Below are positions 4,306-54,866 of a stretch of DNA of 64,000 nt, piece after piece. Both the position numbers and the translations under genes were made by a program. The notes under the pieces were generated by a model. It was not told the origin of the DNA and ran no database searches. It worked only from the letters and a program-made list of their open reading frames with translations. Every line of letters begins with the position of its first letter. Position 1 is the first letter of the stretch. Location: positions 18,274 to 82,273 of the forward strand of contig JAEYWL010000062.1 of NCBI GenBank assembly GCA_023428915.1. Direction: 5' to 3'. The stretch is from Verrucomicrobiota bacterium (GTDB lineage: Bacteria > Chlamydiota > Chlamydiia > Chlamydiales > JAEYWL01).

Positions 4306-4429
4306 CGTGCCCGAAATACCGGCGAAGCCGGTACAGCATGTACCCCCATCCAAGCGAAGGAGCTCTGCGACTGAGCGCAGCTTGGGGTAAGAATTGCACA
4401 AGATTTGAGCCGTGAACACGGCGACAGAA
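4306..4429. repeat. ~125-bp repeat copy A, directly 3' of the tnpA stop codon
   Basis: Near-identical (a few mismatches, one 1-nt indel) to 5070..5195 in the same orientation. Contains short hairpins CCGGCGAAGCCGG, CTGCGACTGAGCGCAG and GCCGTGAACACGGC. Confidence 0.9.
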
Positions 4430-4894
4430 TTAGCCGTAATGTTCAGCTTCAAATAGATATCGGCGTTCAAAGTTGATGTCATGTAACTCTAGAAATTTAA
4501 TATACTCTTCCTCAAATGTCCTGGTTTGATGATGCTCCTGTTGATTTTGAATGTAATGACGAACTAATTCTATTTGAGAATAGCTGACTGAAAATGCTCC
4601 ATATCCTTTTTGCCATTCAAATCGACTCTTTTGACCCAACAACCCATTGCTCCATTTCGATGCATTGGCTTTGATTTCTCTAATTGAATCTGAAATAGCT
4701 TTTGTAGGAGATAGGTTTACTAACAAATGAACATGATCCTCAACCCCACCAATTTCCATAAGATAGCCATTTTGTGCACGAATAATTCCTCCAATATATT
4801 CATAGAGTTTTTTTTGCAACGCAGGTTGAATTAATGGATGACGATATTTTGTGCTAAATACCACATGATATGTCAGTTTGGTGAATGTGCTCAT
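4430..4894 (-). CDS. tnpA: IS200/IS605-family Y1 (HUH) transposase / REP-associated tyrosine transposase-like
   Basis: HUH motif in EDHVHLLVN and C-terminal catalytic Tyr region (VRHYIQNQQEHH). 154 aa with the typical YHVVFSTKYR N-terminus. Confidence 0.85.
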   Translation of the reverse strand: MSTFTKLTYHVVFSTKYRHPLIQPALQKKLYEYIGGIIRAQNGYLMEIGGVEDHVHLLVNLSPTKAISDSIREIKANASKWSNGLLGQKSRFEWQKGYGAFSVSYSQIELVRHYIQNQQEHHQTRTFEEEYIKFLELHDINFERRYLFEAEHYG

Positions 4895-5069: not shown

Positions 5070-5195
5070 CGTGCCCGGAAAACCGGCGAAGCCGGTACAG
5101 CATGTAGCCCCATGCAAGCGAAGGAGCTCTGCGACTGAGCGCAGCTTGGGGTAAGAATTGCACAAAGATTTGAGCCGTGAACACGGCGACAGAAA
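5070..5195. repeat. ~125-bp repeat copy B, directly 3' of the dipeptidase stop codon
   Basis: Direct-orientation copy of 4306..4429. It ends one base before the stop codon of the 5196..6221 gene. Confidence 0.9.
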
Positions 5196-6221
5196 TCAAC
5201 GAGGAAGCTGGGCAAAATAATGGCGGTGGAGGAAGGCCAGCGCATTGCCATTGGCGATTTTACGCAGCTGGGCCTCGGGCAGCTTAAGTTTTTGCTGCAT
5301 GACGCCTAAAAGAGCGGGATAAACGCTGGCATCCTTGAGGTCTTCGCTGAAAAATGGCCCATGCCGCTGCGATTCAGGCGGCAAATCAGGCTCGTAGAAA
5401 AAATCAGCCCCGAAGCTTAGGTGTTCATGGGCCCGCATAGTTAAGCCATGGGCCACATGCCTGAGAAAAGAGTCAATGCCTTGAGGGCCTACAAAAGAGC
5501 GGATAAAATTGAGGCCGATAAGCCCCCTGTGTTCAAGCAATTCCCTCACCAAGCAGTCCGGCATATTGCGCGGCACGTCTGCTGCCTGGCGAAAGTTGGA
5601 GTGGCTGGCCATGACGGGAATCTGCAGCTGCCGCCTGTCGATATAAGATAACAGCTCGCCGGCCAGCTCGTCGGAAGCATGGCTTAAATCAACGGCAATC
5701 CCTCGTGCATCCAGATAGTCGAGCAGCTTACAGCCATCCGGCTTAAGTCCTGTTTTACTATGGACTCCCCCGCCAAAACGGTTTTCCTCATTCCAGGTCA
5801 AACCGATATAAAGGGGGCGTTCCTGCTGCCTTATTGCCAGCTCCAGCCTTTCCATTCCCTGGCTGAACGGCTCATGCTCTAACCAAAACAAGGAGGCGTT
5901 TTCTACCGCCCAAAGCAAGCGTATTTTAGGCTGTTCAAATAAAGACTCTAATTGCCACCTGCTGGTAAGCGCTTCATAGTGCTCAGCATATTTCTGGAGA
6001 ATTTTTTGATAACAGGCCAGCTGGGCAGCGCCGCGGCGCACTGATTCCTCTCCTGTGGTTGTGAAATGTGCCATGACTTGCAATTTCACCCCTCCGGCTT
6101 GGTGCTGCGGCAAAGCACAACGGGACTGCAGGTCAAGAGGCGTCCGGTTAGGATCGCGCTGCAAATAGAGCAATAAGTCGCAATGCAGGTCTATAACGGG
6201 AATTGATAGCTTAGGGTTCAT
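5196..6221 (-). CDS. membrane dipeptidase (peptidase M19 family)
   Basis: M19-like motifs VIDLHCDLL, VDLSHASD, ASHSNFR and FGADFF. 341 aa. Confidence 0.75.
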   Translation of the reverse strand: MNPKLSIPVIDLHCDLLLYLQRDPNRTPLDLQSRCALPQHQAGGVKLQVMAHFTTTGEESVRRGAAQLACYQKILQKYAEHYEALTSRWQLESLFEQPKIRLLWAVENASLFWLEHEPFSQGMERLELAIRQQERPLYIGLTWNEENRFGGGVHSKTGLKPDGCKLLDYLDARGIAVDLSHASDELAGELLSYIDRRQLQIPVMASHSNFRQAADVPRNMPDCLVRELLEHRGLIGLNFIRSFVGPQGIDSFLRHVAHGLTMRAHEHLSFGADFFYEPDLPPESQRHGPFFSEDLKDASVYPALLGVMQQKLKLPEAQLRKIANGNALAFLHRHYFAQLPR

Positions 6222-7104
6222 AACGGCTTAATACCTCTTGCTGGCCCTTGGAAGCATCAGCATCGCCTCTGGCAATGCGCAGCTCCCCCCACTTATGGCC
6301 GCGATAATAAGCCCAATAATAGACGATGCGGCGAAATGGAAGCAACCAGATGCCGCGCCATTCTTTATGTTTAATGTAATAGCATAGATCGGAAAAAGTG
6401 GAACCGGCTATGCGCCGGCAAATATGCCAAAAACTGACCGGCTTCCTGTAGATAAAGGCGTCAGCTTCGCCCTCTACAAACTTTCTGCCATACAATTGCT
6501 TGAAAGTATAATTATGCGAATGAATAGCCTGCGCTTCCGGCACGTACACAATGCGCCGCCCCGTTTGCCTGGCCCAATGCCCCCATTCGGTATCTTCTGA
6601 AGCCCAGGCAAGTTCATAAAAAGGGCGCTGCCGCCAAACAGAGAGGCGCATGGCAGCCAATGGCAGCGACCATTCCATCCAAGCGGGAGCCTCTCCGGCA
6701 GGAAATGAAGCCGCATAGTCTTTGCGCACCCAGGGCTCGGCGTCTGCCCGGGGCAGCTGCCGCGCGTAGGCAGCTGCTACATCAGGATCTTCAAAGGGCT
6801 TCAAGAGGTTTTCTAAAGCTTCAGGATGGTTCAAAACCGTGTCGGAGTTCAAAAAAATTACAACCCCGCTTTCTACACCGCGCAGGGCCTCATTCAATAC
6901 TTTACCCGGAAAATAAGCCTGAGCGGGAATCGTTATAATGACAGCCCCAAAACCGGCGGCAATCTCCCGCGTCCTGTCAGTCGAACTAGAATCGATCAGC
7001 AGGAGCCGGTAATCGCGCAAGGTTTGCTGCTGCAGCGCTTCCAACGCCTGTCTTATCGTCGCCTCACTATTTTTACTGCGCATGAGGATCGTGATCATCT
7101 GCAT
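6211..7104 (-). CDS. family 2 glycosyltransferase
   Basis: N-terminal GT-A pattern (ITILMRSKNSEATIRQALEAL...LLLIDSSSTDRT) and a later FLNSDT acidic motif. Overlaps the downstream dipeptidase gene by 11 nt. Confidence 0.75.
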   Translation of the reverse strand: MQMITILMRSKNSEATIRQALEALQQQTLRDYRLLLIDSSSTDRTREIAAGFGAVIITIPAQAYFPGKVLNEALRGVESGVVIFLNSDTVLNHPEALENLLKPFEDPDVAAAYARQLPRADAEPWVRKDYAASFPAGEAPAWMEWSLPLAAMRLSVWRQRPFYELAWASEDTEWGHWARQTGRRIVYVPEAQAIHSHNYTFKQLYGRKFVEGEADAFIYRKPVSFWHICRRIAGSTFSDLCYYIKHKEWRGIWLLPFRRIVYYWAYYRGHKWGELRIARGDADASKGQQEVLSRYEP

Positions 7105-7109
7105 AAATT

Positions 7110-10082
7110 CTAGGCGGCTTGTTGTCTTGGTTCAAGATCTTCTAACTTTGCTCCTGGCACACTTATATCTGGGTGATTTAAAGCAAATATCGCACGATTG
7201 TAATTATCAATAGATTGCTCAACAAATTTTTTTGCTGCTTGCTCTAATTTATTAAACTCTTCATCCGAAAACACTTTTAGGGTATTTTTTAACGTTTCCA
7301 CAGAGACTGTTGCTCCACTCGCTTTTAATTGACTCGTCATATAGTCTTCAACAAAAGCTATAGCAACGTGCGTCTTTCCAACTGAGGGTTCAGAAATAAA
7401 ACTTAAATCAAGATCAATGTCAAAATTGATTTTTTTGTTATTTTTCGATAATTCCACATGCCTTTTTCCATTTACAAAAGGACGTAAACGCTCTGTTTGA
7501 TTCCCGTTTGAGGTTTCAATCCATTCGCTTTTATAACTGAATCCCCCCGAAGCAGCTTTCATAAAACCATGCTCATCTATCAATTCAGGGTTAAGTACAT
7601 TATTGAAATGCCTGTCTATTGGCCCTTCAGAAGTTAAAGTTACACCAGTTTGCTCCTTAGTCAGAGTCAATAACTTTCCAAATTCAGCCTTAAGCTCCTG
7701 AGGAGGAGTATTGTTTAAAAGTGCTGTCTGCATAGAGTCTGTAATGGCTTGAAAGTTTTCCTGATAACTTAACAGTATAGCGTTTACAGAAAAATCCTTG
7801 CTTGCTCTCATGGCATCAGAATCATCCGGGTTAAAATTTGCAAAATACGTGGCAACCCTTTGGGCTCGTTCCTCTAAAGATGCAGGTGGACGCATGTCTA
7901 CAAATGTGCCGGAGGCATACATGTTTACTATTTGCTGCTCTGTATTAGCCAATTCATTTAAAAAATCATCAAGCACTATGGCAAATACACTATCCATTTC
8001 CACACATCTAATTAATTTCTGAAGCTCTTCAGGGGAATTAAAGGCTGGCGCCAAGAATGGAGAGCCCAATTTGCCCACTATCAGGTCCTTTGATTGTAAA
8101 TCAGCCTCTTGTTTTAAAGCAGTAAAAGCCTTTTCAATAAAGGCATCAACAGCTTTTCCAGATTCACTATTTTGCAACCCTGAATTATTAAGATTAACTG
8201 CCATGTCAACTAAGGCTATTGCTACTTGCTGCATATCTTCTTTAGAGACTGCCTCTTGATACTTAGCAAAGTTTTCTGCGATGTTAGGCGAAGACCTAAA
8301 AATTTCGTTAAAACTTTCTTTTTTTATCGCTTCTTTTATTTCGGGTGTCGCAAATTTAGATACAAGTTGACCAAATTTTTCAACAGCCGCCGTGCCATCA
8401 CTAATTACTTTTTCGTCGGCTTTAGTTTTTTCTTCCATTTTTGTTTTAACCGCTCGGTGGTAATCTTCTAAGATTTTTTTTGAATCTGGGTCAAGCAATG
8501 AAAGCATGCTTTCTAACTTGGTATTTACATTTTTTATTACATTGGCATTTGGATTTTTTAAATACGTTATAGACGTCATGTACTCATTAAAGGCCCGCTG
8601 TGCTTTAGGGTCCCTCATTAGTTTTTTTCCTATTTGAGCAATATCAAGGCGAGCATCTGAAGCTTGCAGCATTAAAAGCCCTTCACGCATTTTTTTATAA
8701 CCTCTACTCTCAGAAAAAGCTACAAGAGGCCCCTCTGCACCAAATAGGTTAAAATCGCCTTCTTTTTTAATAATAGCAACATAACCCTCCGAAACATTAA
8801 TAGCGTCTTTCATAGAAAGACCCTCTCCTCCTTTCACCATTTGTTTAAATAAAGGGAGTAAATCGGGGTTTGCTAAGAAAAACTGCACAAGTTTATGCAC
8901 CTGCTCTTGTGAAAACAAATTATCTGTATTGACTTCTTGAATGACACTGATCACATTCAAAACAAGTTTTACATCGTAATTTTTTTCTTTTAAGTTATTT
9001 TCTTCATTAAAGCTGGTCAAAATCCCAATGTTATTTTCAAACTTATTCCTGATATCTAAGTCATTTAAATCCAATCCTAAACCTTTTGCTAAACGGTTTT
9101 CCGATTCTCTTTGATCGACAAGATCTAACACTAAATTTTTTAATCCATTGTCATCAAAATGATGCACCTTCTGAATATCTATAAATGAGCTTTTTGTTTT
9201 TTGAATAAATGTTTCAATCATAGTATTTTCTCTCGGAACTTCATGCGCCCGAACTAAGGAGACTAAGGGCTGCCTTTTTTGATCGATAACATTTAAACCA
9301 TTCTTTGGGTTTAGATGAGCAAGAGGGGCATTTGCCCCGGTAAAAAGCTCTGGTAAAGTTCCTTTGAGATGTTCATAATATTTATTGAAGTTATGGCTAT
9401 CTTGACTGGTAATGCCTTTTTTTCCATATTTAAGCAGCCCTGTTAAGCTATCTTTAACAGCTTTGTCCTGTAATTTCTGATAATTTCCTGGTATATTAAA
9501 AAAATTATTTAAACCCTTCACCTGTGAATCGTTAAGGGATTTACCATAGTCAATAGCGCGAAGCTCTTTTGAGACAAATGACCTTCGAATAAAACGGCCA
9601 ATAGGGCCTAGGCTATCCCAATTATATGCCTTTTTTGCTGGTTTCTGATTTGTAAGGACGACTCTATCGCTCTCAGCCACAGGTTTTGTTTCCATAGTTT
9701 TTAGCGGCTGGACGGTCTTAAGAATTAAAGGACCAAGGGTAGCAAAACTTTGCAAATAATCGACGATTTGAGAAATAGAGGAATCTGTTTCTCCGCTATC
9801 TGCTTGAAAGGCAAGTGTTTTTATCGCTTCTCCCACCTGCACGTGAACTACTCCTTCTTTTAAGGAAACTTTTGCCTCTGGGTTTTCCTTGCTCAGATTT
9901 TCACTTAAAAACTCCTGCACTCCTTCCTTAGCCAGGAATTTTTGCACAGTATTATCTCCACCAGCACCACCCAAAAAAGTATAGTCTATGCCGTTGTGCT
10001 CTACTCTTTGCTGAATCCTTTTTGGTTGTGCAGGTTGATTAGGCAATGCTTTTGGACTAATGTTTATTGGGGATGCTTCCAT
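7110..10082 (-). CDS. large hypothetical protein (orphan 1, ~990 aa), no signal peptide
   Basis: Long uninterrupted ORF. Preferred start is ATG at 10082 (MEASPINISPK...) with AGGAGA 4-5 nt upstream, rather than the GTG at 10103. No TM segment or recognised catalytic motif. Confidence 0.8.
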   Translation of the reverse strand: MEASPINISPKALPNQPAQPKRIQQRVEHNGIDYTFLGGAGGDNTVQKFLAKEGVQEFLSENLSKENPEAKVSLKEGVVHVQVGEAIKTLAFQADSGETDSSISQIVDYLQSFATLGPLILKTVQPLKTMETKPVAESDRVVLTNQKPAKKAYNWDSLGPIGRFIRRSFVSKELRAIDYGKSLNDSQVKGLNNFFNIPGNYQKLQDKAVKDSLTGLLKYGKKGITSQDSHNFNKYYEHLKGTLPELFTGANAPLAHLNPKNGLNVIDQKRQPLVSLVRAHEVPRENTMIETFIQKTKSSFIDIQKVHHFDDNGLKNLVLDLVDQRESENRLAKGLGLDLNDLDIRNKFENNIGILTSFNEENNLKEKNYDVKLVLNVISVIQEVNTDNLFSQEQVHKLVQFFLANPDLLPLFKQMVKGGEGLSMKDAINVSEGYVAIIKKEGDFNLFGAEGPLVAFSESRGYKKMREGLLMLQASDARLDIAQIGKKLMRDPKAQRAFNEYMTSITYLKNPNANVIKNVNTKLESMLSLLDPDSKKILEDYHRAVKTKMEEKTKADEKVISDGTAAVEKFGQLVSKFATPEIKEAIKKESFNEIFRSSPNIAENFAKYQEAVSKEDMQQVAIALVDMAVNLNNSGLQNSESGKAVDAFIEKAFTALKQEADLQSKDLIVGKLGSPFLAPAFNSPEELQKLIRCVEMDSVFAIVLDDFLNELANTEQQIVNMYASGTFVDMRPPASLEERAQRVATYFANFNPDDSDAMRASKDFSVNAILLSYQENFQAITDSMQTALLNNTPPQELKAEFGKLLTLTKEQTGVTLTSEGPIDRHFNNVLNPELIDEHGFMKAASGGFSYKSEWIETSNGNQTERLRPFVNGKRHVELSKNNKKINFDIDLDLSFISEPSVGKTHVAIAFVEDYMTSQLKASGATVSVETLKNTLKVFSDEEFNKLEQAAKKFVEQSIDNYNRAIFALNHPDISVPGAKLEDLEPRQQAA

Positions 10083-10183
10083 AATTTCTCCTATTGACTT
10101 CACCAGGAAGTCTCTTGGAAAGACTCAAAAAGGACTTCAAAAATATTGCTTGATTTTTCGATTAACTTGTCCTTTTAGTAATT

Positions 10184-11308
10184 CTACTCTCCTAACACTG
10201 TCAGTCCTTGAGGGACTGGGATGCGAGTTTCTCTTTGCCATTCCTCTATAGCCTTTTGTAATTCTTCTTTCGCTGCTGATTGAGGGGTTTTAGAGGCTGA
10301 AGTAATAGCTGTAATTAGTCGTTGCAAAGCAAGGCTATTTAACTCTGCATTAGGATGCGTTGCAAGATGCTTGCCAATGGCAATACAATCCTCATTGGAA
10401 AAAACTCCTCCTTTATCCTCATTGCGTATTTCCTGGGTAATTACATTGACAAACATATCGGCAAACACAGAGTTGGCATCCCGCTCATTAAAAGTAGCAT
10501 TGGAGAATGCTTTTTTATCCTCTCGCTGCATGGGTGAAAGGAACTGGCTAAAGGCTGCTTTAAAAGCTGGAATATGTTCTTTTTTTCCTGAAAGGATAGC
10601 GGGGTAAAGATCTAGCATCGTTTCTATATGTTTTTTTATCTGCTGTCTTCCCAAAAGTTCTTTGCATTCAGGCTTATTGAGCAATACCGCTGCACGTAAA
10701 ATGACCTGATCTTTTTGCTTCCAGCTTGTGCCTAGCCACTTAATGCGTAAGGAAACTTCAGTGAAGAGGATTTTAAGGGTGTCGATAAATGAAAGGGATT
10801 TAGCAGGCAGACGATATTGATGCTCTTGCAAACTGCCCTCATTACGAGTGGAACGGACATTTTCAAATAAGGAAGGAGGGATGGCGACTGAACTTGGCCT
10901 GGAAAAATTCGGGGCGCGTGCAGGTTTGGCATCCGAGACGGCAAGACCCGGGAAGAGATACTCATTATCTGGGCCCACTACGCGCGCTGTAATTGCTTTT
11001 ATCTCTTTAGGTTGTTTTTCAGGCGGGTTCAAAGTGGGATTAGGCTTTAACTGATACACCGCATCTTTTTTTGGACGTCCCAGCAAGCTCAGTTGATTTT
11101 GTATAAACCCTTTAACTTTTTCGATGTCTGTGTTAGCTGGAGCATATAGGGTAATTTGAAAAACAACGCCATCTGCTCTTCGCATATTAAAGATACGAGA
11201 AGGGCCGCTATCGCATGCTTGCTCAGGTATATCGGTGTTTACAAATTCTGAAAACTCCCCTTTCCCGACGATTTCAGAAAAATCCCCGCTACTAGGCAAT
11301 GAATTCAT
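10184..11308 (-). CDS. hypothetical protein (orphan 2, 374 aa)
   Basis: ORF preceded by AGGAGAG. N-terminus MNSLPSSGDFSEIVGK has no signal peptide. No recognised family. Confidence 0.75.
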   Translation of the reverse strand: MNSLPSSGDFSEIVGKGEFSEFVNTDIPEQACDSGPSRIFNMRRADGVVFQITLYAPANTDIEKVKGFIQNQLSLLGRPKKDAVYQLKPNPTLNPPEKQPKEIKAITARVVGPDNEYLFPGLAVSDAKPARAPNFSRPSSVAIPPSLFENVRSTRNEGSLQEHQYRLPAKSLSFIDTLKILFTEVSLRIKWLGTSWKQKDQVILRAAVLLNKPECKELLGRQQIKKHIETMLDLYPAILSGKKEHIPAFKAAFSQFLSPMQREDKKAFSNATFNERDANSVFADMFVNVITQEIRNEDKGGVFSNEDCIAIGKHLATHPNAELNSLALQRLITAITSASKTPQSAAKEELQKAIEEWQRETRIPVPQGLTVLGE

Positions 11309-11323
11309 AAAATCTCTCCTAGT

Positions 11324-12616
11324 TTAAGAGGCTAAGTAATTTATTAAACCTCTAGCAAAAATTGTTATTGAAGCATTATCATCAAACTTATATTCTTTTA
11401 GGCAATTCTCTACTTCGATTCTAATTTTTTCTAATTCCTTTTTAAAATCTCCTTCATCTGTAAGATTTAAATTTACTGCCATTACTAATTGCTTACTAAC
11501 CTCTGAATAATCAAGTAATTCTTTTTTCAAATCTTCTATAATTAAAGGAGCTTGAAAAGACCAGTCTATGTTTTTCCAAGTAGACTGATCTGAAATCCCC
11601 TGCTGCATAATATCCTCTAGGACATTAAGAGCTAAGAAGCCGTTAAGCTGATTAATATTGGCTTGCTCCTTGATTGAATTGTTGACTGATGTTTTATTTA
11701 ACTTGCCAACTTCGCTAAAAGCATTCTGGCAAACTTCTTCAAGGTGATCCGGAATCTTGAATTGCTCTTTTAATTCTGATAAAATTTGTTTATATCCAGA
11801 TTTATGTTCTTTTATATCGCTTACTAGTTGCTTAATAAGTTCTAAGCCTTTAGGGATTTGACAAATATTATTAATGACTACTAAATCTTTGAGCGTTTTC
11901 TCTTCCCTTTCTTCTTTAGTTTTTGCTGAAGGAGGAGAAATGGAGTAAAAACCTTTTATATTAGATAATAATGCCTGCTTTCTTGCTGCATTGTCGTAAG
12001 GATCATTTGGATCATCCGGCTCTATATACAGGGGGGAGTCAATTTCATTTAGGATAAAAGAATTTTTTCCAAATACTTCTTGGAGCTCCTTGGCTTCTGG
12101 AGAATTCAAGGGTATAGGAGCTTCATTAGTTCCTCTAGCAGCTTTTTTGATAAGCAAAGAGTTATCGAGCAATTTTGTGGCATTCTGTGATGACCGGCTA
12201 AAAAAAACAGCCAAGATATCCTTGCCTTTATTCGTAATAGTAATTTTTAGATGATCTATAAAATTTAAAACTGCTTTTTTTATTGAACGGCTAAATTCCA
12301 AGTGTTCTGTGTCTTTGCTAGTTAACCTTCTTAAGGTCTCCTCTGCTGACTCGTGATTTATTATCGATTTATCCTGTTTTCCCCAAACACGTTTAGATTG
12401 ATTTACTATATTATTAGGTATGCTGGAATTCACGCGCGCCCCTTCTAAAGGAAGAGGGGGATTTTCTTGCGGCTTGGTTAAAATATCTAATGCTTGCTGG
12501 TTATTTTGCTGGAAATCGGGAGCCATGACTTTGTTTTCTATCCCATTTGGTGATTGCAAGTCTGATTGCTGCCCCAAATAGGGATTATTGTCATTTTTAC
12601 CTATTGCAAATCCCAT
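11324..12616 (-). CDS. hypothetical protein (orphan 3, 430 aa)
   Basis: ORF preceded by AAGGGGGG. The Asn/Gln/Ser-rich N-terminus has no signal peptide. No recognised family. Confidence 0.75.
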   Translation of the reverse strand: MGFAIGKNDNNPYLGQQSDLQSPNGIENKVMAPDFQQNNQQALDILTKPQENPPLPLEGARVNSSIPNNIVNQSKRVWGKQDKSIINHESAEETLRRLTSKDTEHLEFSRSIKKAVLNFIDHLKITITNKGKDILAVFFSRSSQNATKLLDNSLLIKKAARGTNEAPIPLNSPEAKELQEVFGKNSFILNEIDSPLYIEPDDPNDPYDNAARKQALLSNIKGFYSISPPSAKTKEEREEKTLKDLVVINNICQIPKGLELIKQLVSDIKEHKSGYKQILSELKEQFKIPDHLEEVCQNAFSEVGKLNKTSVNNSIKEQANINQLNGFLALNVLEDIMQQGISDQSTWKNIDWSFQAPLIIEDLKKELLDYSEVSKQLVMAVNLNLTDEGDFKKELEKIRIEVENCLKEYKFDDNASITIFARGLINYLAS

Positions 12617-12625
12617 GATCCCCCC

Positions 12626-14632
12626 TTATTCTTCCAAGCTGTTTTCTAAGATATAATTGTGCAGCATCCCGAACAGCTTTTTGAGATCATAACTTGCCTC
12701 CACAGATAATTTACGCTCTTCGGCTAAGTCTGCCAACGCATGAACATTGTCGCCAAAGATCCTCTGAAGGTCTGCTTCATCGAACTTTTTATCGTACTGG
12801 AATACGTTGTTGAACAAGGAAAAGACAACATCCTGCGGCACATTGATCTGACGGCGCTTTAGAAAATTTGCCATAAACTCATTGATCAGCCCTTTTTTGA
12901 TTTCAAAAATGACTTTTTGTGCAGCTGGATTAGCTTCAAACTTAAATCCTTGTTCAATTGTCGTAAATAAAGGCACTGGTTGAAGCAGTTGCTGATCTAC
13001 TTGCCTTATATGGTCGGCTAATTGGGAAGTTAATCCTATGTCGAGTAAAGGAGCTTGCACTCCGCCTAATTCCGATGGTTTAATTGCAGCATTCTCCAAT
13101 AGAGAAAATATCGTCTCTAAATTATCTAGAAAATGGACAAATGCCTGAAATTTGGCAGCTACCTGCGGTTGTTCTTTCCTTTGGTTTTCGGCAACCTTGA
13201 CAAGCGCCATCTTAACTTTATGCAGCTCGTCCAAGGAGATCTTCTTACTGTCTGCATGCAGCAGGGTATCTAACAGGTCGGCTAAAAGATTTTCCTGCTC
13301 TAAAGAAACATTTACCCCTAAAGAATTTATGGGAAGGGTCAAATCCGGATTTATCCCCGCCAATTTTTCGTTAGTTTCAATTAAGGTGCTGCGGGTACGC
13401 ACCCAGCTATCCATTACCCTTACAGCCTCTATAAAGGGAAGGTTTACGGAATTCTCGGCAGGAAGAAAATCCAACAGCTCTTGTTTTTTCCGGGTAAGCT
13501 CTGCAAGGGAGAGGGCTTGATGGTTGTGCAAATAAATGAGCACGCTGTTCATGTAAGTTTGCAAGGCTTTCCGTTTAGCAGGTGTATTAAAGATGCCTTG
13601 AAAATGTGCCTGGTCAATTTCCTTGTTGAAGAGCTTAAGATTGGAGAAAGTATCATTGTGAAAATGCCAAAGCTGAGCTACCGAAGCCAGCAACTGCTTA
13701 GCAGCTGGAAATTTCTCTTCCATAACCCCCAAGATTGCCCTTACGGTATTGATCAGGTATTTAACCGAATGGGCCTCGCTGTGCTTGGCATATTTTATTA
13801 GCAAAGTATTTAACACATGCAGATCGGCTACAGAATGCGTGCTTGAAAGTAATTCTTTAAGGACTTCCCCATCGCTTTGATGTCCGGCTAAGCCATTCAA
13901 CCTGTGGGCTGCATTTACAAACTGCGAAGCAATGCTGTTATTAAAAAGAGCGTCGGCAGCCTTTTTAGTGCTTTCATCACCGCTCTGGCTGATTTGCTGG
14001 CGGAGCTCGATCAACTGTGAAATATTGGCTTTAGCTGCGCCGCTGAGCTCCTGATGGCGATCTACGTGTTTTTCAGCTTCGATCAACTCTGAGAATGTTG
14101 CGAATTTAGGATTTTCACTGGCCTGGCGCACTAGCATATAATGCGCCTGGCTTGCAGAATGCAGGCCTGAACTGACTAATTCTTCAGAAACCACACTAGA
14201 TGTGTCACTATGGCTATCTTCCACACTGCTGAAAGAGTCCTCATCGCGCAAGCGCGGCAATTGCGGAGATTCTGATTCAGGCCCCTGCGAAATAAAAAGG
14301 GCGGCTACCTTAGGCACAGAAGTGTCAATAAAGTCCCCTGTAAATTCCCTCTCCCCTTGCCTGCCATTAAATCCGGTTCTGTCGATATTGACTTCATCAA
14401 ATTGCGCTGTATTCTTAACAATTTCCTTTACCACTTCGACTAATTCGGCCATTTTGGCCTTATCTTGCTGCCCAAGTTCGTGCTTGCTGCCTGTTTCATC
14501 TATAAGCGTCGCTTTAAATAGTTCGTTGCCGATCAGGATAAGGCCAGAGTTAGTCACTTCCACAGCAGGGAAATTTTGAGAAGCTGCAGGTTGAGCCACT
14601 GAAGAAAATGAGGAGAAATCTGCATTAGCCAT
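12626..14632 (-). CDS. hypothetical protein (orphan 4, 668 aa), paralog of 14871..16376 in the N-terminal ~75 aa
   Basis: AAGGAG precedes the ATG. The N-terminal block VEVTNSGLILIGNELFKATLIDETG...LVEVVKEIVKNTAQFDEVNI aligns to the neighbouring gene. The remainder looks helical and is unrecognised. Confidence 0.8.
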   Translation of the reverse strand: MANADFSSFSSVAQPAASQNFPAVEVTNSGLILIGNELFKATLIDETGSKHELGQQDKAKMAELVEVVKEIVKNTAQFDEVNIDRTGFNGRQGEREFTGDFIDTSVPKVAALFISQGPESESPQLPRLRDEDSFSSVEDSHSDTSSVVSEELVSSGLHSASQAHYMLVRQASENPKFATFSELIEAEKHVDRHQELSGAAKANISQLIELRQQISQSGDESTKKAADALFNNSIASQFVNAAHRLNGLAGHQSDGEVLKELLSSTHSVADLHVLNTLLIKYAKHSEAHSVKYLINTVRAILGVMEEKFPAAKQLLASVAQLWHFHNDTFSNLKLFNKEIDQAHFQGIFNTPAKRKALQTYMNSVLIYLHNHQALSLAELTRKKQELLDFLPAENSVNLPFIEAVRVMDSWVRTRSTLIETNEKLAGINPDLTLPINSLGVNVSLEQENLLADLLDTLLHADSKKISLDELHKVKMALVKVAENQRKEQPQVAAKFQAFVHFLDNLETIFSLLENAAIKPSELGGVQAPLLDIGLTSQLADHIRQVDQQLLQPVPLFTTIEQGFKFEANPAAQKVIFEIKKGLINEFMANFLKRRQINVPQDVVFSLFNNVFQYDKKFDEADLQRIFGDNVHALADLAEERKLSVEASYDLKKLFGMLHNYILENSLEE

Positions 14633-14656
14633 TTTACACTCCTTAAATTTACTTGC

Positions 14657-14671
14657 TATAATTATTATAAA
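14657..14671 (-). promoter_or_regulatory. shared AT-rich motif TATAATTATTATAAA upstream of orphan 4
   Basis: An identical 15-mer occurs at 16405..16419, at a similar distance upstream of the paralog's start (about 25 vs 29 nt). Confidence 0.35.
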
Positions 14672-14754
14672 ATTAATTTATTAATTATGTAATGTTAATT
14701 TAATAAATAAGAATTATTAGAAGTAAAATAGAAACGATCTCAAAAAAGCCTGAA

Positions 14755-14880
14755 TTAGGCGCGCTTAAATGGACAATAGGGACATCATGGACCATAGAGG
14801 CTTAACATACTAAGCTATAATATCTTATGTCTATATGGTCCCTATAGTCCATGCTGTCCCTATTGTCTATTTAGGCGCCG
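14755..14880. repeat. palindromic intergenic repeat element (GGCGC(G)CTTAAATGGACAATAGGGAC family), copy 1
   Basis: Left arm GGCGCGCTTAAATGGACAATAGGGACATCATGGAC. Reverse complement of right arm GGCGCCTAAATAGACAATAGGGACAGCATGGAC. The right end overlaps the stop codon of 14871..16376. Confidence 0.8.
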
Positions 14881-16376
14881 CTTAAGTTTTCTTGGATCTT
14901 TACTGCAGACTCAAGGCGAGCTGTCATCCTATACAGGATTTTGCTTTCCAGCTCGTTTGGAGGTTTTGAAAATGAACGTTTCAATTTTTCAATGAAATGG
15001 GCAACTTCGCCTGTAATTCCCGTTTGTTTCTTGTTTGCCAAAAATTGTTTGGCAACCGAAACGTAATCATTAAACACCATAAACTGTTCAATAGTATTAA
15101 AGACCTTTAAGAATTCCTCTAAAGAAACTTGGTCGGTATTACTAGTTTCATTTAAGAATTTTAAGTTGTCTTCTAACCTCCCTATGGCACTACTAAGGCT
15201 GGAATCGATGAGCGGCAAAGTTTTGTAGATTTCACGCTGCTCTTGCGGGATTAATTCTTTCAGCTTGCTGCCCTTGGTTGCAACTAAAGCCTTAATTCTG
15301 GCCGCTTTTTCTTCCGGGTGTATCTGCTCATTCAAAATAGCAGTAACTTCGGTTTGCAGTCCTCGTTGAATATCTTCGATGCTTTGCAAAAGTTCCGGAG
15401 CAGGAATATCTGCCGCAGATCTCAAGCTGTTTGTGATCTCTTTAAAACTATGCTTATTCTTATCGCCTCCATGCCGGATTAATAGAGCAGAAAGTTCCTC
15501 AACCTGCTTGACAGCACTTCCTGAATACAAAACTTCCACAGCTGTCTTAATCTCCCTTGGAAAATTTTCATTTTTTACTAAATCATATCTGCCTTTCAGA
15601 GCCATTATCCCATCCCGCACCTCTTGAATAGGTGGTTGATAGGCATGAGTCATCGAAGCTTTAACGGCCTGTTCCTTCTCTATGCCATCCAAAAATGGCT
15701 GTAACGTTTGCGATAAAGGCTGATTTGCTTTGATAAACTCCCTGAGAATTGTTTTAGCTGCAGAAACAGTCATTGAAGAATCAGTATTTTGATTTTCTGA
15801 AATTACTGCTGCATGAATATGAGGTTCAGGTGCGGAAGATCGGGGATGAATATGCAATTGCATAGGTATTAGCTCGTTACGTTCGGTTAGAGGCTGTGCA
15901 AGTGGTTGAGAAACAATAGTATGCGATTGTACATGTGTCAGCTGTGCAACAGAAGAAGGATTTTCTGCTAGGGGTGTGTCAAAATTAGGCATTGAAACAT
16001 TGCGGGCAGCTGCCGCTGTCGTAAAAATTGTCTCTATTTTTTTTGACAGGGCCTCATCATGCTTCCCCTGAGATTTTATTTTCCCCCCTTTTTTTACTTC
16101 AAAACCTGCGGCATTAATTTGCATCTCATCAAAATGGGTAGTGCTCTTCACGATTTCTTTCACCACTTCAACCAGGCCTTCTATTTTGTCTTGGGTCAAT
16201 TCGCTAAGCATTTTGCTATGGCCGCTTTCATCGATAACCGTAGCCCTATAATATTCGTTGCCTATTTTTATCAGCTTGGATTGTGTGACTTCAACTACAG
16301 GAGGTTTAGCAGGCGGGGAAGAGGCTGGGGGCGTGGGAACTCCAGGCATAAAAGGAGGGAATCCAGGATGTGCCAT
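14871..16376 (-). CDS. hypothetical protein (orphan 5, ~501 aa), paralog of 12626..14632 in the N-terminal module
   Basis: Preferred start is the second ATG (16376, MAHPGFPPF...) with GGAGG 4 nt upstream. The block VEVTQSKLIKIGNEYYRATVIDESG...LVEVVKEIVKSTTHFDEMQI aligns to orphan 4. Confidence 0.8.
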   Translation of the reverse strand: MAHPGFPPFMPGVPTPPASSPPAKPPVVEVTQSKLIKIGNEYYRATVIDESGHSKMLSELTQDKIEGLVEVVKEIVKSTTHFDEMQINAAGFEVKKGGKIKSQGKHDEALSKKIETIFTTAAAARNVSMPNFDTPLAENPSSVAQLTHVQSHTIVSQPLAQPLTERNELIPMQLHIHPRSSAPEPHIHAAVISENQNTDSSMTVSAAKTILREFIKANQPLSQTLQPFLDGIEKEQAVKASMTHAYQPPIQEVRDGIMALKGRYDLVKNENFPREIKTAVEVLYSGSAVKQVEELSALLIRHGGDKNKHSFKEITNSLRSAADIPAPELLQSIEDIQRGLQTEVTAILNEQIHPEEKAARIKALVATKGSKLKELIPQEQREIYKTLPLIDSSLSSAIGRLEDNLKFLNETSNTDQVSLEEFLKVFNTIEQFMVFNDYVSVAKQFLANKKQTGITGEVAHFIEKLKRSFSKPPNELESKILYRMTARLESAVKIQENLSGA

Positions 16377-16404
16377 AAAAACCTCCATTGCAATAATTAA
16401 CCTT

Positions 16405-16419
16405 TATAATTATTATAAA
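16405..16419 (-). promoter_or_regulatory. shared AT-rich motif TATAATTATTATAAA upstream of orphan 5 (divergent region with 16484 gene)
   Basis: Identical 15-mer to 14657..14671. Lies in a very AT-rich 107-bp divergent intergenic region. Confidence 0.35.
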
Positions 16420-16483
16420 TTCTATTTATATTTGATTAATATAATTATTAATAATAACAAATAAACTTACATAAGGATTAATA

Positions 16484-17200
16484 ATGGAAACAGTTGGTTT
16501 CAGCCCTAATATCCCAGTAACCGAAGAAAATTCTCCAGATGCGAAAACTCCCCAGGAACCTCATTGGATTACTGCTTTTACTCAAGACGCCCTTGCATTC
16601 AAAACGGAAGAGAGAATGGCTGCTATGGGAAAAAAAATAACGGAAGTAGTCCCCATTGAGAACATTACCATTCCTTCTTTTCAAACTCATACCATGGTTG
16701 GTTGGGATGCCGGCAAAGTAGTCGATGTAACCCAGCAGCCTCCTCTGTATACAAAAGAAATTGGGCCTTGTATTGGGATTTTAGCCAGACTGTTTGAAGG
16801 CGAAACTGTTACCCACACAGCCTTGCATCATGTATTTTGTAATCCGGAAGAGCTAAAAAACACTCTAAAAACCTTAATCGAAAAAACAAAAGAAGGAACA
16901 ATTGAATTTTTTATTACAGGTGGAGATGCTAGTTCTATCGGCAACTATAACAAAGTCATAAAGATTATCGAAAAACTTCGCGCAGAACACCTAAGTGTAA
17001 ACATGATTATACAAGAAGATCTCTTTAGGATAGCAGATCTGGGTCTGCCTTGTAAACTAACCCTGGATAACATGCTATATCGCGAATCATGCGGGTTGCA
17101 GTTTGCGGGTTTTGATGAGCAACATCGCCCCTATCAGATAGTTGATGTAAGCAGCGACCGTCCTTGTAAAGAAGAAAATTTTACCAGGGTTTGGCACTAA
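16484..17200 (+). CDS. hypothetical protein with CheD-like (Cys/His deamidase-fold) sequence pattern
   Basis: YTKEIGPCIGILARLFEGETVTHTALHHVF, then EFFITGGDASSIGNYNKVIKIIEKL. This resembles the CheD pattern T-x5-C...H, then GG...IGxRN. Remote similarity judged by eye only. Confidence 0.35.
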   Translation: METVGFSPNIPVTEENSPDAKTPQEPHWITAFTQDALAFKTEERMAAMGKKITEVVPIENITIPSFQTHTMVGWDAGKVVDVTQQPPLYTKEIGPCIGILARLFEGETVTHTALHHVFCNPEELKNTLKTLIEKTKEGTIEFFITGGDASSIGNYNKVIKIIEKLRAEHLSVNMIIQEDLFRIADLGLPCKLTLDNMLYRESCGLQFAGFDEQHRPYQIVDVSSDRPCKEENFTRVWH

Positions 17201-23881: not shown

Positions 23882-23964
23882 GCCGATGTGGCGAAATGGT
23901 AGACGCGGTAGACTCAAAATCTACTTCTGGCAACAGAGTGCTGGTTCGAGTCCTGCCATCGGCA
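23882..23964 (+). tRNA. tRNA-Leu (anticodon CAA)
   Basis: Acceptor stem GCCGATG/CATCGGC and anticodon stem-loop GTAGA-CTCAAAA-TCTAC. Long variable arm, GGTTCGAGTCC T-arm, discriminator A, no encoded CCA. Confidence 0.9.
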
Positions 23965-23993
23965 CACTTTTTTCCTTTTAATTATTTTCAAAT

Positions 23994-24077
23994 GCGGCCA
24001 TGGCGGAATTGGTAGACGCGCTAGATTCAGGTTCTAGTCAAGGCAACTTGGTGGATGTTCGAGTCATCTTGGCCGCA
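23994..24077 (+). tRNA. tRNA-Leu (anticodon CAG)
   Basis: Acceptor stem GCGGCCA/TGGCCGC and anticodon stem-loop CTAGA-TTCAGGT-TCTAG. Long variable arm, TGTTCGAGTCA T-arm, discriminator A. Confidence 0.9.
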
Positions 24078-24122
24078 ATCCTATTCCTGCTGTTTGCAAG
24101 CTTCAATTGCAGTGCTGAAACT

Positions 24123-24752
24123 ATGGAATTAACTTACCCAAAAGTTGCCCTGGTGGCTAATGGCGTAATTCGCGACTACCCTGCTGTCTTAAAAGAAATT
24201 GCGAAATACGATCGTATCATTGCCGTTGATGGAGGCGTCAATCACTGTTTAGCAATGGAATTGCGGCCTGACCTTATTGTCGGCGACCTTGACTCTGCGA
24301 ATTGCCAAGCATTGGCTGCTTTTAAAGATGTTCCTGTAAGATCTTACCCGACAGAAAAAGATGAAACTGATTTAGAGCTGGCTATTGAAGCTGCAAAGGA
24401 ATGGGGAGCGCAAGAGCTCGGGCTATTCGGCTGTACAGAGGGGCGCACCGATCATCTGCTATACAACCTGCATATCTTATACCGGCTGCCGGCAATCCGA
24501 ATTGAATCGCAAAATGAAACCATATTTTTGCTGGAAAACAGCCAAACTGTAACAACTTGCCCAGGACAAACTGTTTCGCTTATTCCTATAGCTGGTCCCT
24601 GCGAAGGCATCACGACCAAAGGCCTGCGCTGGGAGCTCAATAACCACACCTTTGACTCTCATTTTATGAGCCTCTCCAACATCGCCCTCGGCAACTCTTT
24701 TGAGATCGCCATCGCCAAAGGCCGGCTGCTCTGCATCCTGCAAAAGCTATAA
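24123..24752 (+). CDS. thiamine pyrophosphokinase
   Basis: Motifs IAVDGG, VGDLDS, EKDETDLELA and GRTDH. Start moved to ATG 24123 because the 24000 ORF start lies inside tRNA-Leu(CAG). Confidence 0.8.
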   Translation: MELTYPKVALVANGVIRDYPAVLKEIAKYDRIIAVDGGVNHCLAMELRPDLIVGDLDSANCQALAAFKDVPVRSYPTEKDETDLELAIEAAKEWGAQELGLFGCTEGRTDHLLYNLHILYRLPAIRIESQNETIFLLENSQTVTTCPGQTVSLIPIAGPCEGITTKGLRWELNNHTFDSHFMSLSNIALGNSFEIAIAKGRLLCILQKL

Positions 24753-24763
24753 TTAACTACTAA

Positions 24764-24881
24764 TTAGGCGCTTAAATGGACAATGGACTTTAACGGCCCC
24801 ATCGACCTTATGGACTCAATGAACTAAGCGCCAGCTATTTAGATTATGGCTTTATTAAAGTCCATTGTCCATTTTAAGCAC
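24764..24881. repeat. palindromic intergenic repeat element, copy 2
   Basis: GGCGCTTAAATGGACAATGGACTTTAA ... TTAAAGTCCATTGTCCATTTTAAGCAC (inverted), with an internal ACTAAGCGCCAG half-site. Lies 12 nt after the stop of the 24123..24752 gene. Confidence 0.8.
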
Positions 24882-30466: not shown

Positions 30467-31054
30467 TCAACCCTCAACCCACTTGCCATTGCAGAGGCTG
30501 AATTGAAAATCAGGAATGCCTAACTGCTCAAAGGTTTCTTCAATTGGCGGTTCCTGCAAGGCCTGTGTGTTGGGGTCGGCATAATAGTACTTAACAACCC
30601 TGTTGACCACCAGAATTTGCGCTAAATAAGGTGCAAGCGGCCTATCCATATTCTCATCCCAAAAACCAATCTTAATACCCAGCCTGCCAGGATTAATATC
30701 TGCATCCCATTTTGAATCCCTTTTCGTCATAAAAATTACCCATTGTCTGTATACAGGCTGAGTTTTGATCTCAGCAATAAATTCGCAGATAATATTTTTT
30801 ACCAAAGGTCTTGCTTGCTCTATTGTCATGCGGTTGCGGTTCGAAAATAAAATAGACCAATTATTGTAGTTATCATCAACAATCCACTTATTGCCAATTA
30901 CTAAAAATTCCATATTGTATTTTTTGGCTATGCTGCAGCTAAAACGATCTAAACGAGAGCTTTTAGCAACATCTTCTTTAGGTCCTTGATATTTAGCCGA
31001 CATGCAGACCGCACTAATAAAAACTGCGAATAAGAATCTTAGAGTCAATTTCAT
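30467..31054 (-). CDS. exported small protein, paralog of 31051..31581 (candidate RHS immunity protein 2)
   Basis: N-terminal signal peptide (MKLTLRFLFAVFISAVCMSA). Shares the IEQAR and FWDENMDRPLAPYLA motifs with the upstream ORF. ATGA overlap with it. Confidence 0.7.
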   Translation of the reverse strand: MKLTLRFLFAVFISAVCMSAKYQGPKEDVAKSSRLDRFSCSIAKKYNMEFLVIGNKWIVDDNYNNWSILFSNRNRMTIEQARPLVKNIICEFIAEIKTQPVYRQWVIFMTKRDSKWDADINPGRLGIKIGFWDENMDRPLAPYLAQILVVNRVVKYYYADPNTQALQEPPIEETFEQLGIPDFQFSLCNGKWVEG

Positions 31055-31581
31055 TTTGGCTTCCTTAGTAAATTAATAGCAGATTCTTTAGACACAATTT
31101 GAATAGCTTCTTCAAGCGTTTCTTGATGCACGACTATAAATTTAAAGGGATCATCTTTAGGTTTTATTTCGTATTCTATTATATCTTTTGAATTCATGAC
31201 TCTTGCAATTAGCGGGGGTTTGGGGTCGTCAGAATTGCAATCTAAAAAATGAATAGAGAGAGTGAAAAAATTTTTAAGTTTAAAAGGGTAATTATGAAGG
31301 TAGGGCCTTAAAACTTTATTTGCATTTACTGTATTTAAAGCTATCAATGCCGTTGTGACATAATACACCCTGGCCTGATCAATATCCACAAGATCTTTTT
31401 TAATAAAGGATAAGTCGAGCTCTTTTACGTCACAGGCCATGGCACCACCACTGCCAAATGCGCGTAACCCCGTTTGCTTACAAACTTCAGCTGAAATTTT
31501 CTTAAGAGTCCTATTGGCCTCCTCCACGTAGGTAAAGCTCGAAAACAATAATAATAAAAATATAGGTATAAACTGCTTCAC
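31051..31581 (-). CDS. exported small protein (candidate RHS immunity protein 1)
   Basis: GTG start overlapping the RHS stop (TAGTG). Signal peptide MKQFIPIFLLLLFSSFTYV. Carries the IDQAR and FLDCNSDDPKPPLIA motifs shared with 30467..31054. Confidence 0.7.
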   Translation of the reverse strand: MKQFIPIFLLLLFSSFTYVEEANRTLKKISAEVCKQTGLRAFGSGGAMACDVKELDLSFIKKDLVDIDQARVYYVTTALIALNTVNANKVLRPYLHNYPFKLKNFFTLSIHFLDCNSDDPKPPLIARVMNSKDIIEYEIKPKDDPFKFIVVHQETLEEAIQIVSKESAINLLRKPK

Positions 31582-39405: not shown

Positions 39406-39473
39406 CTAGCGCTTAGTCCTTTGTCTCTAAGGTCCCTGGCGTCCCCAAGGTCCATTGTCCATTTAAGCGCTAA
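39406..39473. repeat. palindromic intergenic repeat element, copy 3
   Basis: AGCGCTTAGTCC...GGTCCATTGTCCATTTAAGCGCTAA has the same terminal GCGCTTA/TAAGCGC inverted ends and GTCC/GGAC-rich interior. Lies 22 nt after the helicase stop. Confidence 0.75.
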
Positions 39474-46559: not shown

Positions 46560-47525
46560 ATGAAAACACTTTTTATTTGTTTCCTCAGCTTTTTTCTAGC
46601 ATTTGCAATCAATGCTGCAGAAGAACAGGCCCCAGCCCCGCTTCTGGTTTGGGATGGCATCAATCATACAGATGGTTTGCCGATAAACTTTCGCTCCACT
46701 AACTCCTCATTACCCACAATATCCCTGGAAAACCCTTCTCCCGAAGGGCTTAAAGCCCTGCACATCTCCGGCAGCAGCCAGTTTTCAAAACAGGAACTAT
46801 TAAAGATTATCGAAACCGTCGGAACTGCAAACGGCAAACTGTATATCATCGATTTGCGCAATGAATCGCATGGTTTTTTAAATGATTTGCCTGTCAGCTG
46901 GTATGGAGTTAAAAATTGGGCCAATGCCAGTTTGAGCTCTAAGGCTATCGAGCGGCAGGAGGAATTGCTGCTGGCAAACCTGGCAAAAGAAAAAGAAGTA
47001 CAGGTCTATACCATTTTAAAAAAGAATGATAATGGGCAGATCGAAAACACTTCAGCCGAAAAGGTAGTTGTCAGCAAAGTCTATAGCGAACGGGAGCTTG
47101 CCAATCAGCTTGCCCTCCCTTATCTGCGTTTCTATGTTAAAGATGAAACATTCCCTTCCCACGAAGAAATTGATGCTTTTATCCAATTTGTAAAAGATTT
47201 ACCGGAAAAACACTGGCTGCATTTTCATTGCCGCGCAGGCAAAGGGCGTACCACAACCATGATGGCGGTTTATGACATTTTGCAGAATGCCAAAAAAGTC
47301 TCGCTTGAAGATATTATTACCCGGCAATATCTTTTGGGCGGAGTTAATTTGGCGGAAGTAGATCGAGGCCAAAACTACAAAACTGAGAATTTTAAAGCCA
47401 GGCTCGCTTTTATCAAAAACTTTTACGAGTATGCTAAAACCAATGATGACGATTACGACACCTTGTGGAGCGACTACCTCAAAGGCGAGCTCGTCAGCCT
47501 GAGAGAAATCCGCGCTAAAAATTAA
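46560..47525 (+). CDS. secreted protein-tyrosine-phosphatase-like phytase (inositol polyphosphate phosphatase)
   Basis: Signal peptide, then P-loop HFHCRAGKGRTTTMMA (HCxxGxGRT). An upstream FYVKDETFPS is a candidate general-acid loop. Resembles PTP-like phytases. Confidence 0.7.
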   Translation: MKTLFICFLSFFLAFAINAAEEQAPAPLLVWDGINHTDGLPINFRSTNSSLPTISLENPSPEGLKALHISGSSQFSKQELLKIIETVGTANGKLYIIDLRNESHGFLNDLPVSWYGVKNWANASLSSKAIERQEELLLANLAKEKEVQVYTILKKNDNGQIENTSAEKVVVSKVYSERELANQLALPYLRFYVKDETFPSHEEIDAFIQFVKDLPEKHWLHFHCRAGKGRTTTMMAVYDILQNAKKVSLEDIITRQYLLGGVNLAEVDRGQNYKTENFKARLAFIKNFYEYAKTNDDDYDTLWSDYLKGELVSLREIRAKN

Positions 47526-54825: not shown

Positions 54826-54866
54826 AGCCCGAATTAGCGGCTTGTTTTTTTGGATAATGGAAAATA

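Follow-up and report, generated by a model that had tools for sequence, protein, structure and literature searches.

A fast-diverging, lineage-restricted block of five genes in an environmental chlamydial genome as a source of candidate type III secretion substrates

The window analysed here is a 64-kb stretch of contig JAEYWL010000062.1 (assembly GCA_023428915.1), and the subject of this study is a block of five consecutive minus-strand open reading frames (ORFs), which we call O1 to O5, lying within it at positions 7110 to 16376. We have found that O1-O5 are confined to the organism of the window and one sister assembly, and that at the amino-acid level they have diverged 3-50 times faster than the neighbouring genes HtrA, M48 and h518. 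An initial annotation of this DNA had proposed that the block is an island of effector candidates, and the reading that we prefer is close to this: judged from its context, the block may be a lineage-specific accessory cluster encoding soluble candidate substrates that would be delivered to a eukaryotic host by the chlamydial type III secretion system (T3SS). We put this forward tentatively, with rather less than even confidence, and the rival explanations are weighed below.

The block and its divergence from a sister lineage

The locus comprises the five ORFs together with one adjoining orphan gene and two downstream enzyme genes.

7110-10082, minus strand: O1, 990 aa, soluble (an alternative call, 7110-10103 from a GTG, gives 997 aa)
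10184-11308, minus strand: O2, 374 aa, soluble
11324-12616, minus strand: O3, 430 aa, soluble
12626-14632, minus strand: O4, 668 aa, a paralog of O5
14871-16376, minus strand: O5, 501 aa, with a Pro-rich N-terminus (a longer call, 14871-16388, gives 505 aa)
16484-17200, plus strand: O6, a 238-aa acidic orphan, divergent from O5 and adjoining O1-O5
6211-7104, minus strand: GT2 glycosyltransferase, 5 nt downstream of O1
5196-6221, minus strand: M19 dipeptidase, overlapping GT2 by 11 nt

ORF calling recovers the five consecutive minus-strand frames of 990, 374, 430, 668 and 501 aa first described in the initial annotation, and the good Shine-Dalgarno motifs that it reported are seen before the start codons of all five. 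For O1 we prefer the ATG at 10082 to the GTG because the AGGAG motif that stands 7 nt upstream of it keeps the same arrangement in the sister genome, and for O5 the second ATG (16376) is preferred because it is the one that a GGAGG motif precedes. The gaps had been described as short, at 9-80 nt, with the exception of one filled by a repeat element. This is true of O3/O4 (9 nt) and O2/O3 (15 nt), and a palindromic repeat does occupy the 238-nt O4/O5 gap, but the O1/O2 gap measures 80 nt only from the GTG and is 101 nt from the preferred ATG.

All five ORFs are present in the same order in the sister assembly GCA_048222815.1 (the source of the homologues P0002 and P0012 discussed below), where they are spread over three short contigs.

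L047: the first 47 codons of O5, then O6, M48, HtrA and h518
L002: the remainder of O5, then O4 and the beginning of an O3-like gene
L048: the end of the O3-like gene, then O2 and an O1-like gene of which 855 aa are present (E = 1e-112 against O1)

Since these contigs together rebuild the gene order, the arrangement of the block is conserved in the sister lineage, and the comparison across related genomes that the initial annotation had called for finds presence and synteny limited to this single assembly. The sister locus is split over contigs of 4-6 kb, contig numbers in the assembly exceed 13,000, and one of the breaks interrupts the N-terminal domain of O5, of which O4 has a second copy; this suggests that the sister is a chlamydial symbiont whose DNA was assembled within a larger project, possibly one on a eukaryotic host or a metagenome.

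Non-synonymous divergence (dN) and its ratio to synonymous divergence (dN/dS) between the window and the sister genome were estimated by the Nei-Gojobori method, with the following results.

HtrA: 96.6% amino-acid identity, dN 0.016, dN/dS 0.024
M48: 91% amino-acid identity, dN 0.044, dN/dS 0.06
h518: 88.6% amino-acid identity, dN 0.063, dN/dS 0.076
O4: 80% amino-acid identity, dN 0.112, dN/dS 0.15
O2: 73.7% amino-acid identity, dN 0.165, dN/dS 0.19
O5: 60% amino-acid identity, dN 0.257, dN/dS 0.23
O1, residues 1-300: 62% amino-acid identity, dN 0.271, dN/dS 0.19
O1, residues 300-850: 23% amino-acid identity, dN 0.93, dN/dS about 0.5 (saturated)
O3: 31% amino-acid identity, dN 0.73, dS saturated

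At a synonymous divergence (dS) of 0.7-1.4 between the two genomes, dN spans 0.11-0.93 in the block compared with 0.016-0.063 in its neighbours, and the unsaturated estimates of dN/dS are 0.15-0.23 compared with 0.02-0.08. Given dN/dS values of 0.15-0.23, O1-O5 are real protein-coding genes under purifying selection. The change is unevenly distributed along the proteins. O1 is a mosaic in which the N-terminal ~300 aa retain 50-78% identity per 50-aa block and residues ~300-850 are hypervariable, at 14-28%. The first 47 aa of O5 are 89% identical to the sister protein, the remainder is ~60% identical, and the C-terminus differs in the sister genome. O3 is the fastest-diverging member, with ~31% identity to the syntenic sister gene, and the C-terminal 109 aa of the sister O3-like protein show no similarity anywhere in O3.

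The five proteins, which the initial annotation had described as orphans, are not all unrelated to one another. O4 and O5 are paralogs (blastp E = 2e-21, Smith-Waterman z = 32) that share an N-terminal domain of ~70 residues (VEVTxSxLIxIGNE...ATxIDExG...EVVKEIVK..FDE) and arose by tandem duplication. No other pair among O1-O5 is significantly related. We considered the idea that all five form one diverged family on the basis of a motif aligned between O1 and O4 by hhalign (E = 0.011), and rejected it because this motif fails against shuffled sequences (Smith-Waterman z = 2.8, with shuffles scoring higher), so that supported kinship is restricted to O4 and O5.

With its low GC content at third codon positions (GC3) and its polar N-terminus, O6 resembles O1-O5, and it probably belongs to the inserted block as a sixth gene. 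The sister protein has 92.8% identity to it, and the dS of O6 is unusually low, at 0.13 compared with 0.65-0.83 for neighbouring genes. The DNA from 16330 to 17200, covering the O5/O6 intergenic region and O6, is 95-99% identical to L047, compared with 84-90% for the flanking housekeeping genes, and this near-identity points either to a recent exchange between the lineages or to a constraint acting on the nucleotide sequence itself.

Insertion site, composition and expression signals

The window belongs, on the strength of its sequence matches, to an environmental member of the Chlamydiota that is related to the Parachlamydiaceae and distant from any reference species. Its contig corresponds exactly to scaffold_67 of the metagenome assembly ENA ERZ28594556, which is 119,878 bp long. 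When the PreP-like M16 peptidase was compared with GTDB species representatives, the best matches (55-63% identity) were all metagenome-assembled genomes (MAGs) labelled Parachlamydiaceae, Chlamydiae or Chlamydiota, and the CDP-alcohol transferase, M19, M48 and HtrA also match those chlamydial loci; the chlamydia-like organism supposed in the initial annotation is therefore borne out. In the closest reference MAGs (L003 and L006), M19 and M48 are divergent neighbours lying ~200 bp apart. Between the same two genes, the window holds GT2 and O1-O5 on the minus strand and O6 on the plus strand. The adjacency of M19 and M48 in L003 and L006 shows the block to be an insertion at the M19/M48 junction. 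GT2 does not stand beside M19 in these relatives, and O6 is absent from their junction.

A different set of genes occupies the junction in another Parachlamydiaceae MAG, L024 (14040-15668, minus strand), namely a eukaryote-type protein tyrosine phosphatase (PTP; PF00102, E = 5e-35, active-site motif HCRAGVGRTG, one hydrophobic segment) and a hydrophobic 154-aa orphan. Because L024 carries this pair there, the junction appears to host accessory genes of the host-interaction type recurrently. Both L024 products are themselves candidate secreted or Inc-like proteins.

The composition of the block sets it apart from its surroundings. GC is 0.34-0.44 across the block compared with 0.47-0.53 on both flanks, and GC3 is 0.29-0.45 compared with a window median of 0.47 (p = 0.006), which confirms the AT-richness that had first been judged by eye. 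GT2 and M19 have a GC content like that of the core genome. Pfam, PHROGs, PADLOC and plasmid searches found no integrase or recombinase, phage or plasmid genes in the block, and its borders carry neither a tRNA gene nor flanking direct repeats, the tRNAs of the window lying 7.5 kb away at 23882-24078. Of the features expected of a mobile genomic island, deviant composition and presence or absence relative to related genomes are seen here, and an integrase, a border tRNA and direct repeats are not; the term island used in the initial annotation can thus be kept in its compositional and insertional sense but not in the mobile one. Outside the block, beyond M19 and 2.2 kb away, an IS200/IS605-type Y1 transposase gene (4430-4894, GC3 0.27) lies between two nearly identical direct repeats of ~125 nt (4306-4429 and 5070-5194), and the PreP gene next to it is inverted relative to every related chlamydial locus.

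Three elements in the intergenic regions may bear on expression of the block.

14657-14670, minus strand: TTATAATAATTATA, an AT-rich promoter-like motif 25 nt upstream of the O4 start
16405-16418, minus strand: TTATAATAATTATA, 29 nt upstream of the O5 start, in the divergent O5/O6 intergenic region
14761-14878, no strand assigned: a palindromic element resembling repetitive extragenic palindromes or miniature inverted-repeat transposable elements (REP/MITE-like), an inverted repeat between O5 and O4 that overlaps the O5 stop codon and supplies it

The motif TTATAATAATTATA, which includes a consensus -10 hexamer, has only these two exact copies in the 64 kb, and if one mismatch is allowed there are 4 copies compared with 0.05 expected. 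In the sister genome ~75 nt around the motif upstream of O4 are kept, and the O5/O6 intergenic region is 95-96% identical. Successive spacings from O4 through O3, O2, O1 and GT2 to M19 are 9, 15, 101 and 5 nt and then an 11-nt overlap, and no convincing minus-strand terminator was found within the O4-to-M19 stretch. Given the short spacing and the lack of a convincing terminator, these six genes are likely to form one transcription unit. The palindromic element belongs to an intergenic family, with related copies elsewhere in the window at 24768-24847, 39423-39470 and 54854-54908 and termini GCGCTTAAATGGAC, and it is absent from the O5/O4 intergenic region of the sister. As RNA, 14761-14878 folds at -61.8 kcal/mol (z = -9.8), and the hairpin may act as a terminator, an attenuator or a stabiliser of mRNA. 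Lying after O5, it may separate that gene from the O4-to-M19 unit.

Candidate secretion substrates and rival explanations

Scans of O1-O6 against Pfam, NCBIfam, PHROGs and PADLOC gave no match for O1-O5, searches of PDB sequences with O1, O2, O3 and an O4/O5 profile gave nothing credible, and tblastn against plasmids found no match. Comparison of the O4 model with the PDB by Foldseek returned generic helical-repeat noise (best E = 0.09, TM-score <0.17). In a word-indexed search of 5.8 billion clustered proteins O4 had a single homologue (P0002, 80% identity), as did O2 (P0012, ~73% identity), and O1 had none besides itself. An exhaustive HMMER search of 1.84 billion representative proteins with a profile of O4, P0002 and O5 recovered only O4 and O5, and pattern scans of GTDB genomes and JGI metagenomes, based on the O4/O5 alignment and an O1 N-terminal alignment, found no encoded relative. 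Profile and structure searches of this kind had been recommended in the initial annotation; they yielded no family or usable fold, and no homology to housekeeping or structural proteins emerged. The proteins are lineage-restricted, as had been claimed, with relatives in one sister assembly only, and the description of them as orphans stands with regard to families and wider relatives, with the qualification that one sister genome carries all five.

The maximum Kyte-Doolittle mean over 19 residues is 0.68-1.34 in O1-O5, with no window >1.6, and the same scan gives 2.3-3.2 for M48, HtrA and the CDP-alcohol transferase of the window. With hydropathy no higher than 1.34, we conclude that none of the five proteins has a transmembrane (TM) segment, a signal peptide or a bilobed hydrophobic domain, in agreement with the initial annotation, which had seen neither export signals nor Inc-like domains in them. 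That annotation had also remarked on polar N-termini rich in Ser, Pro, Asn and Gln. The first 25 residues of O1-O5 do contain 36-56% S/T/P/N/Q, against a median of 20% in the 37 other ORFs of the window (Mann-Whitney p = 0.001), but this test is biased and not independent because the ORFs had been picked partly on that very trait. AlphaFold2 models were unusable for both O4 (three-sequence alignment, pLDDT 50) and O1 (single sequence, pLDDT 37). At this low confidence the O4 model suggests an alpha/beta N-terminal domain at ~24-116, an acidic Ser-rich disordered linker at ~117-160 and then ~500 residues of helices. The earlier impression that the sequences are mostly helical is therefore echoed by predicted secondary structure in low-confidence models, which suggests that the soluble proteins O1-O5 are mostly helical.

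Delivery by the T3SS fits this combination of properties best, because the proteins are soluble, have polar N-termini without a Sec signal, are lineage-restricted and partly tandem paralogs, diverge in a fast and mosaic manner, and are encoded at a junction that bears a PTP gene in a relative. The T3SS is part of the chlamydial core genome (PMC8242063), and secreted proteins are described as evolving unusually fast in both sequence and repertoire (PMC3506625). If this reading is right, transcription would start at the AT-rich TTATAATAATTATA promoters upstream of O5 and O4, and O4-O3-O2-O1 would be read as one unit continuing into GT2 and M19. The polar Ser/Pro/Asn/Gln-rich N-termini would then serve as secretion signals and the conserved N-terminal parts of O1 and O5 in delivery or anchoring, whilst the fast-diverging helical C-terminal parts would bind targets in the host, different ones in each of the two lineages. 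A bolder version would have O1-O5 represent new effector families or folds that pair a conserved N-terminal delivery or anchoring module with a helical C-terminal module rewritten between sisters in a continuing arms race with a protist host, with the M19/M48 junction a recurrent effector landing site across the Parachlamydiaceae. O1 residues 300-850 and O3 are both about 20-30% identical to the sister, compared with 97% for HtrA. As a whole we regard this version as doubtful.

Several observations weigh against delivery by the T3SS. No T3SS genes were seen in the 64-kb window, and no gene for a small acidic class I chaperone lies within 7110-16400, where the only ORFs of at least 80 aa besides O1-O5 are antisense ones embedded in the large genes; O6 is acidic, yet its 238 aa exceed the typical size of such chaperones. 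O1-O5 have no homology to any experimentally shown effector family in Pfam, NCBIfam, PDB sequences or Foldseek (O4 model). The N-terminal evidence is weakened, beyond the selection bias already mentioned, by the acidic N-terminus of O2 (5 D/E per 25 residues) and by the poor conservation of the O1 and O3 N-termini between the sister genomes. It is also unusual for effector genes to be linked directly in an operon with ordinary enzymes, as here with GT2 and M19, and fast evolution, low GC3 and orphan status fit non-secreted accessory genes too. The effector-island proposal of the initial annotation is thus supported in part, being helped by the chlamydial origin, the lineage restriction, the composition and the lack of Sec or Inc features, and harmed by the missing chaperone and the missing effector homology for O1-O5.

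The main rival is that the proteins are lineage-specific and never secreted, acting as cytoplasmic scaffolds, regulators or developmental-cycle proteins that may be functionally tied to GT2 and M19. The tight co-orientation with these genes (a 5-nt gap and an 11-nt overlap), the lack of secretion-related homology and of a chaperone gene in the block, and purifying selection would all suit such a role, and orphan proteins of all kinds are abundant in this phylum (25,886 singleton families; PMC8242063). Divergence 3-50 times faster than that of the neighbours, with two-thirds of O1 hypervariable, would however be unusual for internal scaffolds, the polar N-termini do not call for such a role, and the operon link to M19 is secondary because M19 stands alone in relatives. 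We consider this a serious contender, though one that is probably wrong; the remaining explanations are less likely.

If the block were instead cargo brought in by a plasmid, phage or integrative element, or what is left of such an element, gained horizontally and under weak selection, it would have no specific host-directed role. GC and GC3 below those of core genes, the insertion relative to relatives, the IS200-type transposase 2.2 kb off and the nearby MITE-like elements would be explained, and the near-identical DNA of the O6 region in the two lineages would fit recent exchange. Against this, there is no integrase, recombinase, phage or plasmid gene, with PHROGs, PADLOC and plasmid matches all nil, the borders have no tRNA or direct repeats, no donor sequence was found among 15 billion proteins, and both genomes preserve the gene order and the reading frames at a dN/dS well below 1, all of which makes mobile cargo an improbable account. 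Export or surface exposure by a route other than the T3SS (lysis, vesicles or an unrecognised pathway), with host or microbe recognition driving divergence, would account for the fast mosaic change, and the RHS/YD-repeat toxin-like protein of the window shows that antagonistic exported proteins are in the repertoire of this genome. The five proteins, however, carry neither a Sec or lipoprotein signal nor a TM segment, and no domain ties them to substrates of the type II, V or VI secretion systems (T2SS, T5SS, T6SS), so that we think such a route more improbable still. Least credible by far is the idea that these are decaying or spurious, non-functional ORFs, for although they are AT-rich orphans with very low AlphaFold confidence, all five are long, carry Shine-Dalgarno motifs and are intact and syntenic in a genome at a synonymous divergence of 0.7-1.4, and dN/dS of 0.15-0.23 largely refutes it.

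Other loci in the window and comparison with known systems

A second cluster of large orphans lies at 57287-63606 on the plus strand, encoding proteins of 536, 877 and 600 aa with no Pfam match, and looks like the same kind of block as O1-O5. Paralogy between the protein of 536 aa and that of 600 aa is strong (Smith-Waterman score 1221). The ORFs of 877 and 600 aa have a GC3 of 0.25-0.28, polar N-termini are found in those of 536 and 877 aa, and an AT-rich motif, TTATAATCATTATA, stands 30 nt upstream of the first gene. At 30467-36875 on the minus strand, a 1764-aa RHS/YD-repeat protein with a signal-peptide-like N-terminus and an RHS-associated core domain is followed by two small ORFs of low GC (176 and 195 aa) whose N-termini are hydrophobic. 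The arrangement resembles a polymorphic-toxin locus, here in a chlamydial genome, in which immunity genes may be present. The plus-strand ORF at 46560-47525 encodes a PTP-like phytase/dual-specificity phosphatase (PF14566) with a signal-peptide-like N-terminus, MKTLFICFLSFFLAFAINA, and its product is possibly an exported inositol-phosphate or protein phosphatase. The tRNAs at 23882-24078 are two tandem tRNA-Leu genes (CAA and CAG). The thiamine diphosphokinase ORF called at 24000-24752 begins inside the second of these, and its true start is probably further downstream because the family match begins at residue 50.

Among known systems, the closest in general character are the soluble, non-Inc T3SS effectors that Chlamydia trachomatis encodes in small clusters, such as TarP, TmeA/TmeB and the DUF582 proteins. 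With these O1-O5 share a chlamydial context, the lack of a Sec signal, polar N-termini without a consensus, largely helical or disordered sequences, homologues within a narrow lineage, tandem paralogs and rapid divergence. They differ in having no sequence or profile similarity to them and no adjacent chaperone gene, in being candidate rather than established substrates, and in lying upstream of two ordinary enzyme genes. Pfam presumably includes the DUF582 effector family, and its scan gave nothing for O1-O5.

Inc proteins are likewise chlamydia-specific, lineage-variable and often clustered, and are secreted in a T3SS-dependent manner; their bilobed hydrophobic domain of 40-60 residues consists of two TM helices with a short loop between them (PMC3048545). 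O1-O5 resemble them in being chlamydia-specific, lineage-variable and clustered but lack the bilobed domain. A further comparison concerns O6, whose residues 55-149 align weakly to NCBIfam NF041406 (XopAK) at 20 bits (E = 3.8e-4), well short of the 150 bits set as the curated cut-off. In Xanthomonas, XopAK is an effector with homology to the C-terminus of HopK1 (PMC11116571), and the likeness of O6 to this family of plant-pathogen T3SS effectors is limited to that alignment. Since Pfam, the PDB and tblastn against plasmids gave no support for an XopAK-like O6, we rejected the assignment and keep the sub-threshold match as a lead only, not as membership.

More broadly, the block is an instance of the accessory 'cloud' or singleton genes of environmental chlamydial pangenomes, which occur in one or two genomes, bear no annotation and are found in large-genome, Parachlamydiaceae-like lineages. 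Of the 37,380 gene families in one chlamydial pangenome, 25,886 were singletons (PMC8242063). Orphan clusters such as this one are ordinary in these pangenomes and will not surprise a specialist; what is usefully added here is the precise insertion site, the rate contrast with the sister genome and the mosaic divergence of O1, and O1-O5 can be called new families insofar as no relatives of them are detectable. Given that the sequences carry no recognisable chemistry, the value of the block depends on experiments. If the proteins are not secreted, they are one more case from this phylum's large pool of unannotated lineage-restricted genes. If they are, they would extend the effector repertoire of environmental chlamydiae, which is poorly charted, by five or six new families, and the sister genomes would offer a clean pair for the study of effector divergence, with N-terminal parts kept and C-terminal parts rewritten.

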